DNA of 64,000 bases from an uncultured Pseudomonadota bacterium (GCA_963749075.1 CAVVLJ010000021.1:576001-640000); one strand, 5' to 3'; shown: positions 1 through 5,004, counted from the stretch's first letter. The notes: generated by a model not told the origin, from the letters alone. Made by a program: numbers and translations.

Positions 1-11
1 AGCCGCCTGAA

Positions 12-564
12 ATGGGTGAGGCGTCAGGAGCGTAAGCGAGAACCCACGCAAGTGTCCGGGCGGGACACCCCTGACGCCTCTGGAGCCGAAGCCCCATGGC
101 GCAGGAGAGCGGCCAGGCTTCCGGCTGTCCCGCTCCGCAGACGCGACCCCGTGAGGGGACGCCCCCTTTGGAGCGGGGAGCCGTATCCCCCTCGCGGAGG
201 ATCGCCGGCAAAGAGGCTCACCCGTCGGCCGCGTCCGCTCCTCCCGTCGCGTCCCTCCTCCCTTGCGGGAGAATTTTCGCGCCTGGGACCGCGATTCCCC
301 GTAAGGTCTCGCGGCCCCCCGTGACGGCCCCGGCAGCCCGAAGGCTTACCGACGCCGATCTGGGAAAAGAGCGGCCAACCGGGAGTTCGACCTCCCGCCC
401 GGCGGCGCGGTGTCCCGAAGAACTCCCCGCCACCGAGGCCGGGCGGTGCCGCCCCGAAGGGCCGCATCGCCCCGAAGCCCTCGTCCTCTAGCCCGCCGGC
501 CGAAACCCCAAGGGGCAACGGTCAGTTCCGCTTGGGACGATCCGCTTCGACACTCTCTCGTGCC
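12..564 (-). ncRNA. Candidate large structured ncRNA, copy A (family not recognised)
   Basis: No credible ORF. The minus strand is rich in cUUCGg/GNRA-capped hairpins. The 3' domain (18-80) is shared with 4090-4153, with compensatory changes. A sigma70-like promoter lies upstream. Boundaries are inferred. Confidence 0.6.
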
Positions 565-570
565 GCATAA

Positions 571-598
571 ATCGTACTTCACCAAGATGGAAGATCAA
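571..598 (-). promoter_or_regulatory. Putative sigma70 promoter of ncRNA copy A
   Basis: Minus strand TTGATC-16 nt-TACGAT. Confidence 0.55.
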
Positions 599-627
599 TA
601 AGAAAAGCGCGGCGACTTGAAAATATC

Positions 628-688
628 TGTGCGCAGATTTGTCAATTCCGCACAATGGCTCCACAAGTTCTCCACAGTCTTATCCACA
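628..688. promoter_or_regulatory. Cluster of DnaA-box-like 9-mers
   Basis: Perfect TTATCCACA at 680-688; TTCTCCACA 668-676, GGCTCCACA 657-665, TTCCGCACA 646-654; inverted TGTG site at 628. Confidence 0.6.
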
Positions 689-774
689 AACAGTATTCGC
701 TTGCGGCGGACGCGGCATTGCCATGGCCGGTTCGAGCCATTGCACGAGCTGCCGCGGAGCGCCGCCTGGCGGCC

Positions 775-2238
775 TCATGGCTCGGGCAATCCGGCCTTGC
801 GCAGCCCCTCGATCATATGCTCCCGGGCGGCCGCATCGGAGTATTGCTCGAGACGCCATCGCGTCGCCCTGACGCTGCCGTTCGGCAGCATGAGCATCTC
901 GGCGAGCGCGCCTTTCGCCTCCTCGCCGCGGCCGAGTTGCGCATAGCTCGCCGCCAAGAGATGCGAGCTATGGCCATCGGGGCGGATGCGGTGCGCTTCC
1001 AGCGCGACCTCGAGCGCGCCCTCGTAGCGCCCGAGGCTATAGAGGGCCGCTGCCTTGTGGCAGAGCATGAAGAAGGCCTGCGGGTCCCGCGGGCTGAGGC
1101 GCTGCCAAACCTCGACCGCGTCGATCGCTGCCGCGTGCTGGCCGGCATGGGTCAGCGCGGCACCGAGGGCGACGTAGCCCAGAGCGAAATTCGCGTTCAA
1201 CTCGATCGCCCGGCGCGCCGAAGCGATCGCGCTGACGGCGTCGCCGGCCTCGTCGCGAATGCGCGACAGCATGTAATGGGCAGCTGCGTTCTCGTCATCG
1301 AGCGCAATCGCCCGCTCTGCGGCCGCTTCCGCTTCCTCCCTGATCGAGGCGAAGTCCCGCGAGCCGTAGAGGCATTGCATGTTGAGCGCGCGGACCACCC
1401 CGATATGAGCTTCGGCGAGATTGGCATCGAGTGCGATCGCCGTCTGGAACAGCCGGTAGGCGGCGAGCGCCTCCGCCTCGGCCGCCTTTCCCTTGTAGGT
1501 GAAGCTCGAATTGCGCGCGATGACGAAAAACGAGCGCCACTTGGAGAGCGCCGTGATGATGTCCTCGGTGATGCCGTCGACGAAGTATTCCTGCTCCGGG
1601 TCGCCGCTCATGTTGTTGAACGGCAGCACGGCGATCGAGGGCCGGTCGGGCAGCGGCGGCGATGGCGCAAGCTGCGGCGGCGCCGCGGGAGCCCTCCGCC
1701 CGCCGAGCAGGATGCGGTGGGCGTGAACCGGCCTTGCGATGTTCTTGACCTGTTGCTGGCCCATGTCCTCGAAGACGAAGCCGAGTTTGTCGCGCACCTG
1801 GTCGCGCACGACGCGGCTCACGCAGATGCCGCCGGGCTCCGCCAGGGCTTCGAGCCGCGCCGCGACATTGACGCCGTCGCCGAAGATGTCGCCCTTGTCG
1901 ATGATGACGTCGCCGAGGTTGATGCCGATGCGGAACTCGATGCGCCGCCCGGCCGGCACCGGGGCATTGCGCTCGGCCATTGCCGTCTGCACCTCGACGG
2001 CGCAGCGCACCGCATCGACGACGCTGGCAAACTCGACGAGCAGCCCGTCGCCGGTGGTCTTGACGATGCGGCCGCGGTTCTCCGCGATCCTGGGGTCGGC
2101 CAATTCGTGGCGCACCGCCTGCAACGCCGCAAGCGTGCCCTCCTCGTCCTCGCCCATCAGCCGCGAATAGCCAGCGACATCGGCGGCGAGGACCGCTGCC
2201 AGCCGCCGCTCGACGCGCTCCCGCTCCCCGCTGCTCAT
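775..2238 (-). CDS. Class III adenylate/guanylate cyclase with TolB-like and TPR regions (apparent internal deletion)
   Basis: RRLAAVLAADVAGYSRLM, KTTGDGLL, FRIGINLGD, GDGVNVAARLE, PSIAVLPF-NMSGD, followed by TPR-like helices. Confidence 0.9.
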   Translation of the reverse strand: MSSGERERVERRLAAVLAADVAGYSRLMGEDEEGTLAALQAVRHELADPRIAENRGRIVKTTGDGLLVEFASVVDAVRCAVEVQTAMAERNAPVPAGRRIEFRIGINLGDVIIDKGDIFGDGVNVAARLEALAEPGGICVSRVVRDQVRDKLGFVFEDMGQQQVKNIARPVHAHRILLGGRRAPAAPPQLAPSPPLPDRPSIAVLPFNNMSGDPEQEYFVDGITEDIITALSKWRSFFVIARNSSFTYKGKAAEAEALAAYRLFQTAIALDANLAEAHIGVVRALNMQCLYGSRDFASIREEAEAAAERAIALDDENAAAHYMLSRIRDEAGDAVSAIASARRAIELNANFALGYVALGAALTHAGQHAAAIDAVEVWQRLSPRDPQAFFMLCHKAAALYSLGRYEGALEVALEAHRIRPDGHSSHLLAASYAQLGRGEEAKGALAEMLMLPNGSVRATRWRLEQYSDAAAREHMIEGLRKAGLPEP

Positions 2239-2414
2239 CGCCCTGCATCCAAAAGCTCGGCGAAGCCTGTCCGGACACTCGCAAGTGGAGCCCGACCGCC
2301 CGGCGCCAGCATAGCCGGGGGCGCTCGCGTTATGGAAGCGATCCGATCGAGGCCGCGCGGGCGATCGGCTCATCCGACCTGCGGCGAGGCCGCCATGCGC
2401 TTGGTGCCGCGCGC

Positions 2415-2999
2415 TCAGCCGCGCCGGCGCAGCACCGCCACGAGATAGCGGCACCGTCCGCGTCCCGGGTTGACGAAGCGGCAGTCCGCGGGCGGGCCGA
2501 GGCGCAGGCAGTCGCCCGGGCCGAGATCATAGGCGGTCTCTCCCTGGACGAAGCGCAGGCGCCCCGCGAGCGCCACGATCTGCTGGTCCTCGATGAAGGC
2601 GAAGGCGGTGCTGGGGTAGGCGATCTCGGCACCCGCCGGCAACTCGCCCCAGACGAGCTCGAGCGGCGCCTCGGAGCTGCCGGGCGGCGTCAACGCGCGG
2701 CGGCGGAAGCCGGTCGCGGGGTCGCGCCAGACCTCTTGCCGGGCGGCGCGCAGAAGCCGCCCGCCCGCACCCTCGGCGCGGGCGAGGAGCTGCGAGAGGC
2801 TGAGCCCGAAGGCGCCCGAGAGACGGCCCAAGAGGGCCGCCGTCGGGCTGCTCGCGCCGCGCTCGACCTTGCTGATCATGGCGCGCGAGACGCCCGAGCG
2901 CCGCGCCAGCTCGTCCAGGCTCCAGCCCCGCGACGCGCGCTCGCTCTTCAGCCGGGCGGCCAGCCGGGCGTCGATCGAGTCCTCTATCATAGGAGACAT
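2415..2999 (-). CDS. XRE-family HTH plus cupin transcriptional regulator
   Basis: SLDELARRSGVSRAMISKVERG-SSPT HTH and C-terminal LGPGDCL cupin motif; divergent from the GNAT gene. Confidence 0.9.
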   Translation of the reverse strand: MSPMIEDSIDARLAARLKSERASRGWSLDELARRSGVSRAMISKVERGASSPTAALLGRLSGAFGLSLSQLLARAEGAGGRLLRAARQEVWRDPATGFRRRALTPPGSSEAPLELVWGELPAGAEIAYPSTAFAFIEDQQIVALAGRLRFVQGETAYDLGPGDCLRLGPPADCRFVNPGRGRCRYLVAVLRRRG

Positions 3000-3061
3000 T
3001 GTTATATTATAGTAGAAAATGCCAGGGACGGCCAAGGCCTTTCTCGGAGAGGTGCCGGGCG

Positions 3062-3568
3062 ATGACGGACGACATCCGCGATGCCACGCGCGACGACCTG
3101 CCGCGCATCCTCGCCATCACCAACGAGGCGATCGCCAACACGACGGCGCTTTGGACGCTCACGCCGACGGCGCTCGCGGCGCGCGCCGAGTGGTACGAGG
3201 AGCGCCGCCGCCTGGGCTTTCCCGTCCTCGTGGCGAGCATCGGGGGCGAGGTGCTCGGCTTCGCCTCGTTCGGCAGCTTCCGGCCGTGGGAGGCCTATGA
3301 GCGGACGGTCGAGCATTCGCTCTACATCGATGCCGCGGCGCGCGGGCGCGGGCTCGGCTCCGCACTCCTCGCAGCCCTCGTGCGGCGCGCCGAGGCGGGC
3401 GGCATGCACGCCATGGTCGGCGGCATCGAGGCGGGCAACGCCGCCTCGCTCCGCCTTCATGCCCGGCTCGGCTTCCGCGAGGCCGGCCGTCTCCGCGAGG
3501 TCGGGCGCAAGTTCGGCCGCTGGCTCGATCTCGTGTTCATGGAGCTCCTGCTCGGCGGCGGGCGCTGA
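3062..3568 (+). CDS. GNAT N-acetyltransferase (phosphinothricin/methionine sulfoximine, YncA/MddA-like)
   Basis: TVEHSLY, ARGRGLG, N-AS-RLHARLGF, VGRKFGRWLD motifs. Confidence 0.9.
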   Translation: MTDDIRDATRDDLPRILAITNEAIANTTALWTLTPTALAARAEWYEERRRLGFPVLVASIGGEVLGFASFGSFRPWEAYERTVEHSLYIDAAARGRGLGSALLAALVRRAEAGGMHAMVGGIEAGNAASLRLHARLGFREAGRLREVGRKFGRWLDLVFMELLLGGGR

Positions 3569-3596
3569 AGGGCGCCGCCTCGGGGAGAGCGCAAGC

Positions 3597-4040
3597 GTGC
3601 TCGGCACCCTGGCAACGCTTCTCCTCCTCGCCGCCGCCGGCTGCGGGCTCGTCGCGCAGAACCTGCTGATGAGCCGCATCGCCGGCGGCGGGGCGATCTT
3701 GCCTGCGCTCTTGGCGAACTCCGCCGTGGGCTTGGCCCTCATCGTGGCGGCGGGATCGGGGTGGTACGGCAGCGCCTTCATAGCCGACACGGCGGCGCGC
3801 TTTCGCAGCTGGTGGATTCTTCCGGGCGTGCTCGGAACCCTCTTCGTCTTCGCCAGCGTCGCCGGCTACCGCCAGCTCGGCGCCGCGGCCACCTCGGCTG
3901 TGCTCATCGCCGTGCAACTCGCGGCGGCGCTGATGGCCGATGCGCTCGGCCTTGGCCCTGCCTTGCGGCCGGTCGGCCTCACGCAATGGCTCGGCGCCGC
4001 GCTTCTCGTGCTCGGCGCGACGCTTGTGCTGCGCAAATGA
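3597..4040 (+). CDS. DMT family (YdcZ-like) membrane protein
   Basis: Hydrophobic helices with WWILPGVLG and LMADALG; next to a yncA-like gene as in enterobacteria. Confidence 0.8.
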   Translation: MLGTLATLLLLAAAGCGLVAQNLLMSRIAGGGAILPALLANSAVGLALIVAAGSGWYGSAFIADTAARFRSWWILPGVLGTLFVFASVAGYRQLGAAATSAVLIAVQLAAALMADALGLGPALRPVGLTQWLGAALLVLGATLVLRK

Positions 4041-4082
4041 AGGCGGCGTCAGGAGTGTCCCGAGGCCCCGAATACTTAGCAG

Positions 4083-4645
4083 AAATGAAGGCGGCGTCGG
4101 GAGCGTAAGTTGGACTTACGCGCGTGTCCGGGCGGGACACTCCCGACGCCGCCGGGGCCTGGGCGGACCCCCGATGCCGGAGCGGCATGCGACCGCACCG
4201 CCACCGGCGCGCGCGTGCCTCAGGGAGAAACGCGCGCCACGCCGGTGCTTGAGGGCCAAGTCCGCCCTGGGCGGGACGGAGCCCTGGCCCGCGGCACGTC
4301 GCGGTTCGCGAAACCATGCCGGGGAACGGCCGCCGCTCGCGCGCCGACCCTTCCCAAGCTCAGGGAAGCCGGCTCTCCCGGGCGAGGAGAGGGCCCCCCT
4401 TGGCCGGCCTTGCGGGGCGCCTTGCGGCGTCCCTCCGTCCGGCCCCTGGCCCGCGTCCCGACGATCCGGCCTCCCCTGTCGCGACGGGCCGATCTGCGCG
4501 GACCGGCCTGCGACCGAGGACACCCCGCCCTCTTGCGAAGGCGGCGCCGCGCGTGCTTTGGGATCGCGGCCCGCGCCGGCCGGCGCCCGAAGGCGGCACG
4601 TCCGATGCGACCCGCATGTCCCATTGCGATGCACTCCAGCACCGA
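4083..4645 (-). ncRNA. Candidate large structured ncRNA, copy B (paralog of copy A)
   Basis: Hairpin-dense intergenic region with the same 3' three-way junction, invariant GUGUCCCGCCCGGACAC and CAUUUC tail. Boundaries are inferred. Confidence 0.6.
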
Positions 4646-4651
4646 GAAAGA

Positions 4652-4680
4652 ATAGTGACGGCCGTTCCTGCGAGCAGCAA
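4652..4680 (-). promoter_or_regulatory. Putative sigma70 promoter of ncRNA copy B
   Basis: Minus strand TTGCTG-17 nt-CACTAT; same 30-bp offset from the box cluster as in copy A. Confidence 0.45.
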
Positions 4681-4709
4681 TGGAAAAATCAAGTAATTGT
4701 CAAATTTCT

Positions 4710-4770
4710 TGTGAATAAACAATGGCCTTCCTCACAATCTCCCAACAGATTGTCCACAGAGTTGTACACA
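4710..4770. promoter_or_regulatory. Cluster of DnaA-box-like 9-mers
   Basis: Inverted TGTGAATAA (=TTATTCACA) at 4710-4718; TTCCTCACA, CTCCCAACA, TTGTCCACA and TTGTACACA ending at 4736, 4747, 4758 and 4770. Confidence 0.6.
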
Positions 4771-5004
4771 GATTCTCTGCACGCCGCGCTCCCTTCAGGT
4801 GCGCAACCGCCGAAGCCCTGCGGTTCCCCGGGAAAAATCCCCCCATCGCCGCCGCGGCCGCGCGTTTTTGCTGCGTTGCCGCAGATTGACTTAGGCGCCC
4901 GCGAGGCATAGAAAACCTACCGATACCCTGCCGGAACCCGGGCAGCTCACCGCCCGCGGCCGCTCCAGCGCTCGGCACGCCGAACCCGCCGAAGAAGGCG
5001 CCTC

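Follow-up and report, generated by a model that had tools for sequence, protein, structure and literature searches.

Two paralogous large non-coding RNA genes with DnaA-box-like promoter arrays in an uncultured Pseudomonadota bacterium, members of a structured RNA family that appears to be new

The large RNAs described earlier in bacteria, among them RNase P RNA, tmRNA, 6S, OLE, ROOL/GOLLD and raiA, have each opened a line of research, and new classes of this kind are rare. Here we analyse a stretch of 64,000 nucleotides (nt) of DNA from an uncultured Pseudomonadota bacterium (the window; GCA_963749075.1, CAVVLJ010000021.1:576001-640000), which corresponds to C21:576001-640000, a part of contig C21 of the genome G000 (5,488,800 bases in total). 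Two intergenic blocks of the window, copies A and B (Table 1), are almost certainly paralogous genes of a large structured non-coding RNA (ncRNA) family, real and expressed. Copy A is the widespread orthologue and copy B a family-specific paralogue, and each is equipped with a conserved promoter and a terminator-like three-way junction of its own. The family appears to be new, with no relative in Rfam or in the literature searched, while its general kind, the orphan large structured ncRNA, is known.

With OLE, ROOL and GOLLD this RNA shares a size in the range of 500–800 nt, covarying helices, the lack of an open reading frame (ORF), an independent gene, high expression and a function that is not deducible from the genomic context. 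Rfam 15 holds these three families, whereas it gives no match here; the RNA of the window occurs in GC-rich Alphaproteobacteria, is not associated with phages or tRNAs, and has a promoter with DnaA-box-like repeats as well as a terminator-like three-way junction. 6S RNA and mycobacterial Ms1, both of which bind RNA polymerase, offer another parallel as abundant, stable, trans-acting structured RNAs for which a link to growth state is possible and which form paralogue pairs in some bacteria. In contrast to them, the RNA described here is three times larger, multi-domain and devoid of a rod with a central bubble, and the same genome has a canonical 6S gene elsewhere.

The arrangement of the genes recalls RsmY/RsmZ, CsrB/CsrC and OmrA/OmrB, which are tandem paralogues with a shared upstream array, shared ends and divergent bodies, although the present RNA is much larger and its putative regulator is DnaA and not GacA or OmpR. 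A sponge of the CsrB/RsmZ type was considered and ruled out, there being no repeated GGA loops among hairpins that mostly carry UUCG or GNRA. As in datA, DARS and DnaA-regulated promoters, 9-mers of the TTWTNCACA type form a phased array of one orientation with a single reverse box, upstream of a promoter; here, in contrast, the array is attached to a structured RNA gene and the binding of DnaA is predicted. No precedent for a structured RNA gene under a DnaA-box array was found in the full-text literature searched.

Two structured RNA genes and their transcripts

A preliminary description of the window had proposed that the two blocks, similar in length and with little identity between their bodies, are large RNAs, each transcribed independently and provided with a conserved functional module at the 3' end. 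This proposal is now supported by the promoters, the junctions, the compensatory changes and the presence of metatranscriptome contigs on just these loci. New with respect to that description are the conserved DnaA-box-like organisation of the promoters, the origin of the pair in tandem and its apparent splitting by a 3.3-kb insertion in this genome, and the status of A as widespread orthologue and of B as family-specific paralogue. The low identity is borne out as well: the bodies of A and B are about 44% identical in a forced alignment, and a profile search confines their similarity to the last ~80 nt. Alignment of 32 promoter sequences predicts the 5' ends at 564 (A) and 4643 (B), close to the earlier estimates of 564 and 4645. 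We infer that both genes lie on the minus strand from the position of the promoters, the U-rich tails, the G-U pairs and the UUCG loops.

Homologous loci in other genomes form four groups, namely A; D, which is homologous to A over the full length; C, which is weakly so; and B, which shares the promoter and the two ends only. From the predicted start to the tail the RNA measures 533–561 nt in A, 551–569 nt in B, 575–657 nt in C and 566–711 nt in D. RNAalifold applied to nine A orthologues yielded 183 consensus pairs arranged in 23 helices. In this fold 93.6% of 1630 cells are paired, against 41.8–51.6% with slid partners, and 66 pairs are changed on both sides, against 24.2 ± 3.5 in shuffled alignments (0 of 500 reach the observed value) and 15–26 with slid partners. 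When five group D sequences (about 47% identical) were included, two of the seven with long insertions (L077 and L054) being left out, the 13 sequences gave 181 pairs, 108 of them compensatory, and the architecture was kept. Copy B has a fold of its own, with 201 consensus pairs and 61 compensatory ones in seven sequences. Compensatory changes exceeding the controls, by which structured ncRNAs in general are recognised, are therefore present. Full-length MAFFT alignments of groups C and D contained too many gaps for a reliable consensus fold and were rejected.

The fold is closed by a helix that pairs the 5' end with a segment ~80 nt from the 3' end, after which follow a capped hairpin and the junction, and many of its G-U pairs are workable on the minus strand only. 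The richness of copy A in cUUCGg and GNRA loops, remarked upon earlier, can be read off the alignment, which contains five cUUCGg loops plus GCAA, GCGA and GGAA; in the consensus structure the hairpin loops are mostly UUCG, GCAA and GCGA, with a single GGAA. Of the 558 positions in the consensus of A and D, 142 are at least 85% conserved; 108 of these are paired, and the conserved unpaired positions number 34.

No coding signal was detected in either copy. Variable columns are spread evenly over the three codon positions (A 114/101/120, chi-square p = 0.43; B 94/97/96, p = 0.98), most indels are not multiples of three (88 of 92 in A, 51 of 62 in B), and no reading frame is conserved between the groups, whose translated frames do not correspond. 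The lack of 3-periodicity, the non-triplet indels and the unconserved frames rule out a protein-coding gene. The earlier statement that the blocks contain no credible ORF holds as far as coding signal is concerned, but mechanical ORFs do exist on both strands. Stop-free frames of up to 165–237 codons occur, spanning the full length in several sequences; the base composition keeps stop codons scarce in each of the six frames, and these long frames carry no coding evidence.

Nor do the two copies belong to a known RNA family. Rfam 15 at its gathering thresholds gave no match in the 64-kb window or in 20 homologous loci of other lineages (97,748 bases), in agreement with the earlier failure to assign the blocks to any familiar RNA, and at E values up to 10 the first 5000 positions of the window yielded only matches at chance level. 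A divergent housekeeping RNA is ruled out, as the RNase P RNA, tmRNA, 6S RNA and signal recognition particle (SRP) RNA of this genome sit elsewhere (Table 1). A repetitive extragenic palindrome (REP) or other dispersed repeat is ruled out likewise: a covariance model of the 3' domain, R1, finds two copies in the 5,488,800 bases, A and B, and BLAST finds the same two, R1 adding one weak reverse-strand match that overlaps B. Among the loci found with R1 or by pattern (see below) the 3' motif is always preceded, on its 5' side, by a long body and the same promoter. Thus an Rfam match, a coding signal and a dispersed 3' repeat, which the preliminary description itself had set against its reading, did not turn up. 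The full texts searched contain no description of this RNA; subscription journals and supplements lay outside the search, and an earlier description is possible. The passages returned by term look-ups in PMC11109978 and in bioRxiv 10.64898/2026.09.22.753630 do not mention it.

Both RNAs are represented in four soil metatranscriptome runs. Between 8 and 13% of the sampled words of window 1–4800 were found in these runs, a share that fits the two RNAs alone and does not place the strain in the samples. Within the region searched (C21:575701-581100), contigs lie only on window positions -119 to 600 and 4021 to 4740. The summed word depth in the best bin is 23,468–114,468 for A and up to 9,610 for B, compared with 0–3.66 for the intervening protein genes, and the depth of the RNA in the soil samples is thus thousands of times that of its neighbours. 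Contigs matching exactly tile A from 52 to 532; for B, contigs of 444–480 nt with seven differences span 4150/4186–4629 in three of the four runs and stop 14 nt before the predicted start.

Some of the contigs skip 78, 93 or 203 nt (window 100–179, 285–379 and 4171–4375). Their source is probably relatives in whose RNA a helix domain is missing, a hint that the domains are modular and dispensable.

Table 1. Features of the two RNA genes, of the segment between them and of the housekeeping RNA genes of the same genome (window positions unless a contig is named; bit scores refer to model R1)
Feature	Position	Strand	Details
Copy A RNA gene	5..564	minus	predicted 5' end GGCACGAGAGAG at 564; tail CACCCAUUUCAGG to about 5
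Copy A three-way junction	80->18	minus	outer stem GAGGCGUCAGG/CCUGACGCCUC; hairpin GUGUCCCGCCCGGACAC; hairpin GCGUGGGU…GCUUACGC; U-rich tail next; 91.6 bits
cUUCGg-capped hairpin GGGGCUUCGGCUCC	83..96	minus	just 5' of the A junction; helix 20, 100% paired (9 sequences)
Copy A core promoter	571..598	minus	-35 TTGATC (598-593), 16-nt spacer, -10 TACGAT (576-571); predicted start 564
Copy A upstream array	628..688	minus	TGTGGATAA (688-680), perfect DnaA-box 9-mer
Copy A array, further repeats		minus	TGTGGAGAA (676-668), TGTGGAGCC (665-657), TTGTGCGGAA (655-646)
Copy A reverse-oriented box-like CTGCGCACA	636-628		
Copy B RNA gene	4083..4643	minus	predicted 5' end GGUGCUGGAG at 4643; tail UUCAUUUCUGC after the junction
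Copy B three-way junction	4153->4090	minus	outer stem GGCGGCGUCGGG/CCCGACGCCGCC; 86.2 bits
Copy B promoter region	4652..4770	minus	boxes TGTGTACAA (4770-4762), TGTGGACAA (4758-4750)
Copy B reverse box TTATTCACA	4718-4710		one of 34 relaxed DnaA boxes genome-wide
Copy B core promoter		minus	-35 TTGCTG (4680-4675), -10 CACTAT (4657-4652)
Adenylate/guanylate cyclase with TPR repeats	775-2241	minus	
Predicted XRE/cupin regulator	2415-3035	minus	likely
Predicted acetyltransferase	3062-3568		likely
YdcZ-type membrane protein	3597-4040		stop codon 4038-4040
Remnant of a third 3' junction	4041..4075	minus	outer-stem arm and hairpin start; directly after the YdcZ-type stop codon
RNase P RNA	C16:114906-115318		RF00010, above cut-off
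tmRNA	C16:137483-137861		RF01849, above cut-off
6S RNA	C4:393920-394078		RF00013, above cut-off
SRP RNA	C21:708081-708172		RF00169, above cut-off

Conserved gene ends and their distribution

The region upstream of the RNA is conserved in its general organization. The ATTG of the -35 element and positions A2 and T6 of the -10 element are invariant in nine A orthologues and conserved in 32 sequences; A2 and T6 are the most conserved positions of the -10 element, as expected of a sigma-70-type promoter. Across the 32 aligned promoters the array reads tGTGgAtAA, 2–3 nt, tGtGGAtAA and then the weaker ttgtGg and TTGTG, at 11–12-bp spacing. About 60 bp downstream of the first box lies the reverse-oriented TttAtccACAgaaat (consensus TttAtccACA), which is followed by a T-tract, the -35 TTG(c), the -10 nAnnaT and, ~7 nt further on, the conserved RNA start cGGCACG-CGAGAGCG. 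R1 led to 13 further loci, of which 11 show the same architecture. Of the 27 pattern-found loci, 23 have a box with at most one mismatch ahead of the junction on the RNA strand, and the sequence of the other four is truncated on that side.

The consensus of the DnaA box is TTWTNCACA, and the arrays consist of clustered, phased 9-mers fitting it, with variation mostly at the N position. In the genome of the window (5.49 Mb, both strands) there are 9 perfect boxes, 34 relaxed ones and 179 with at most one mismatch, or about one per 31 kb, and the TGTGGATAA of copy A is one of the nine. Judging from this sequence agreement, DnaA probably binds the arrays. A gene of this family starts with two to four helically phased repeats of the TGTGGATAA type matching the DnaA-box consensus, continues ~60 bp downstream with a single reverse-oriented box, and reaches the -35 and -10 elements through a T-rich tract. 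Its predicted transcript opens in most lineages with the conserved GGCACG-CGAGAGCG, proceeds to a body closed by the 5'–3' helix and containing many helices with UUCG or GNRA caps, and finishes with a small capped hairpin, the three-way junction and a U-rich tail.

The 3' junction is the part that A and B have in common most clearly at the sequence level. Its 17-nt hairpin GUGUCCCGCCCGGACAC occurs at exactly two sites in the window, 52–68 and 4124–4140, where 0.02 would be expected by chance and a count of two was reached in 0 of 100 shuffles. Pairing of the outer stem reaches 99.2% across 35 sequences, and four of its pairs have changed on both sides. The exchange of an A-U pair in A for a G-C pair in B, noted at the outset, is real, the pair 34-87 being AU in 24 and GC in 11 of the 35 sequences. 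The second hairpin, in which G-U pairs of A face A-U pairs of B, varies in the same sense (66-79 GU:10/AU:8; 67-78 GC:15/GU:11/AU:9) and can form on the minus strand only, and the CAUUUC tail is present in both copies. The first hairpin had been called invariant. It is so within its own family and among the pattern-found loci, but in the latter the invariance exists by construction, as the pattern required the hairpin; in the 13 loci found with the covariance model it covaries, GUAUCUCUCCGAGAUAC and CGUGCCCUUGGGCAC being examples of such variants. The small cUUCGg-capped hairpin preceding the junction aligns poorly across the more distant groups and is 54.9% paired there.

In the 35 aligned sequences the junction is branched and its closing stem is GC-rich, 11–12 bp long and followed by U-rich tails, that of A being moderately U-rich. 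Like Rho-independent terminators, it has a GC-rich closing stem that leads directly into a U-rich tail (U7 in L077). Unlike them, the stem encloses a two-hairpin three-way junction, its sequence is kept across families, which suggests more than termination, and a simple scan does not call it. The junction and its tail may together form an intrinsic terminator of branched type that also stabilises the 3' end, and perhaps a site recognised by a protein.

Another hairpin, GGCCGCGGAGGUGCCUCAGCACCCCGCGGCC, followed by UUUCGUUUAU, lies on the minus strand just left of window position 1 (L001 about 1453–1495), between A and a convergent Gfo/Idh/MocA gene. This hairpin resembles a conventional terminator and could serve A as a second, back-up one, and the metatranscriptome cover reaches into this stretch at low depth.

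Copy A was found in 11 of 11 genomes of the same family, at 67–84% identity over nearly the full length, and copy B in all eight of those searched for it. An exact-pattern scan for the hairpin with a GGCG anchor across 185,579 species genomes returned 32 stretches. In 27 of these the whole junction is present, and they belong to uncultured Alphaproteobacteria or 'Proteobacteria' from soil, groundwater and the deep ocean; the remaining five come from other phyla and are without the junction. A search of the class with a model of the 3' module, as had been suggested, was done with R1 on one genome per family. It matched 15 of the 151 sampled alphaproteobacterial genomes, one match (L097) being judged false, so that the RNA is present in about 8–10% of the sampled alphaproteobacterial families.

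A miniature paralogue was also encountered in another alphaproteobacterial family (L101, G060:C35:24593-27693; boxes at ~1343, junction at 1500–1601). In this locus, the second copy of its genome, the box array, the promoter and the three-way-junction terminator are those of the other genes, but the body measures only ~100 nt. That the miniature copy and B share with A only the promoter, the 5' end and the 3' module suggests that these ends carry a common function, or common signals for stability and processing, while the bodies diverge.

Possible mode of action and competing explanations

The best explanation as a whole, towards which we lean with considerable reservation, is that these are structured ncRNA genes linked to DnaA whose products act in trans by their shape. 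DnaA would set the level of the RNA through the upstream boxes and so couple its amount to the state of replication or growth. The RNA would work by virtue of its folded shape, binding one or more proteins as a scaffold or to sequester them, and not by way of a single-stranded antisense seed; a role in trans that depends on shape is suggested by the conserved positions being few and mostly paired and the loops mostly capped. The protein scaffold or sponge mechanism is, taken separately, a tentative proposal. A broader idea is that we are dealing with a new large RNA class, found in about one in ten alphaproteobacterial families and ranking with the most abundant transcripts that its carriers make in soil, which is wired to DnaA and couples replication or growth state to physiology, for instance by sequestering or scaffolding a replication, transcription or central-metabolism factor or by feeding back on DnaA; this we regard as speculative and rather unlikely. 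If the control by DnaA is true, it would open a direct way to study how these bacteria signal the status of their replication. Without this link too, an abundant unannotated RNA of 560 nt matters for soil metatranscriptomes and for genome annotation.

The same fold could belong to an architectural or catalytic RNA that assembles by itself, through its own structure or as homo-oligomers, with no dedicated protein partner. Self-assembly has reportedly been observed of late in other orphan large RNAs, and a large, very abundant RNA with 23 helices conserved by covariation, hyperstable capped helices and an architecture shared by A and D despite poor conservation of primary sequence would suit such a role. 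We nevertheless consider it unlikely, since there are no self-complementary loops or conserved junction sequences hinting at kissing contacts or an active site, and the miniature paralogue and B retain just the two ends. The frequent company of succinate dehydrogenase genes suggests instead a regulator that pairs with mRNA, the candidate target being the divergent sdhCDAB operon or other central-carbon genes. The sdhC gene lies divergently upstream of the RNA in nine of nine relatives fetched, in 15 of the 27 pattern-found loci and in six of the 13 R1-found loci, and sdh mRNAs are classic targets of small RNAs in enterobacteria. However, a duplex test of the RNA against its own sdhC start region in 19 pairs, crude in that it allowed large bulges, used mononucleotide shuffles and included several imprecise starts in group C, gave z values from -2.07 to +1.96 and no common site. 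D-group loci are without sdhC within the fetched 8 kb, the conserved unpaired positions are few, and both the size and the abundance of the RNA are atypical for antisense small RNAs, which makes the pairing with mRNA distinctly improbable.

Function might also reside in the DNA, the locus being a site of DnaA titration or recycling similar to datA or DARS, or a part of an origin, and the transcript a by-product or modulator. Conservation of the phased arrays and their reverse box extends to more than 40 loci, and in the window's own contig the cumulative G-C skew is lowest at 590–620 kb (window ~14,000–44,000), 10–40 kb from the two loci at C21:576–581 kb; it is the only internal minimum in the assembly and could mark either an origin of replication or the breakpoint of a rearrangement. 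In addition, the RNAs and sdhCDAB diverge from the box region, and no other relaxed boxes occur between C21 581 and 655 kb. The skew minimum contains no DnaA-box-like 9-mers. The proximity of this minimum led us to check two further genomes. The skew of G078:C1 is monotonic through the locus, from 90 to 236 kb, and G007:C4 has no V at the locus. The dnaA gene is 556 kb and hemE, the usual neighbour of alphaproteobacterial origins, 426 kb away, and the array is duplicated, with one for each RNA gene. The identity of the locus with oriC is ruled out by the skew of the two further genomes and by this duplication, and the compensatory changes found in 23 helices show that the RNA itself is under selection. 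The boxes are therefore read as regulatory sites associated with the promoters, and a function at the DNA level is in our opinion very unlikely. Less credible still, indeed hardly credible at all, is the view that the blocks are not RNA genes but unusual protein genes, or remnants of repeats or mobile elements with a terminator or REP motif. The long stop-free frames and the local duplication of the 3' motif (the remnant at 4041–4075) speak for it; against it stand the compositional origin of these frames, which are not shared between groups, the absence of periodicity, the restriction of the R1 motif to A and B and the synteny kept across families.

Several points weigh against the interpretation of the loci as DnaA-controlled genes of shape-dependent RNAs. 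The fold rests on MAFFT alignments of related genomes, so the counts of changes are not counts of independent events. The metatranscriptome runs come from one study and were kept as contigs, with depths summed over related organisms; contigs show neither the strand nor the true ends, so these are deduced from the DNA. The simple promoter and terminator scan calls neither promoters nor terminators here. The binding of DnaA is predicted from the consensus alone, and a different regulator recognising direct repeats of 11 bp, for instance one of the OmpR type, could read the boxes instead. Their position upstream of the -35 element is compatible with either sign of regulation. No oriC with the same boxes is available for comparison in this genome, as no cluster of at least three boxes was found anywhere in it, including the vicinity of hemE and dnaA; a search for chains with at most two mismatches gave no chain of three, the RNA promoters included, owing to the lower quality of the third and fourth repeats there. 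The scaffold or sponge mechanism is reached by exclusion, and because copy B and the miniature copy share with A only the promoter and the ends, the large body may not be the functional core.

Some observations on replication in this genome may be added. The skew of other contigs has maxima at ~1.13 Mb in C16 and at ~425 kb in C20, and a minimum near 1.19 Mb in C17. Two perfect DnaA-box 9-mers in opposite orientation are found 25 bp apart in an AT-rich sequence at C21:105636 and 105670, the only such pair in the genome. The Bac_DnaA domain at C21:20390-20873 is matched in two adjacent pieces in different frames (profile positions 1–113 and 111–161), which suggests a frameshift in dnaA or an assembly error of this metagenome-assembled genome.

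Genomic neighbourhood of the tandem pair

In related genomes B and A follow one another in the same orientation, pointing away from sdhC and separated by an additional copy of the 3' junction; in the four relatives of the same genus that have both (G001, G003, G004 and G005) they are directly tandem. The 3.3-kb block that separates them in the window (775–4040), situated between the promoter of A and the junction remnant, with its cyclase, regulator, acetyltransferase and membrane protein genes, is absent from these relatives and therefore looks like an insertion that split the RNA pair. Downstream, groups A and C have convergent genes of the mesaconyl-CoA hydratase type and the HpcH aldolase type, group D has different neighbours, and in the genome of the window a Gfo/Idh/MocA oxidoreductase gene takes this place. 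An RNA-binding protein, nuclease, reverse transcriptase or transposase is not a conserved neighbour at any of the loci examined.

The remnant of a third junction next to the YdcZ-type gene has full counterparts at the matching site in relatives, where body-less junction copies lie at about 6939–7013 in L041, about 6345–6427 in L047 and 7609–7713 in L046. Such a body-less junction may descend from a further RNA copy or represent a duplication of the terminator.

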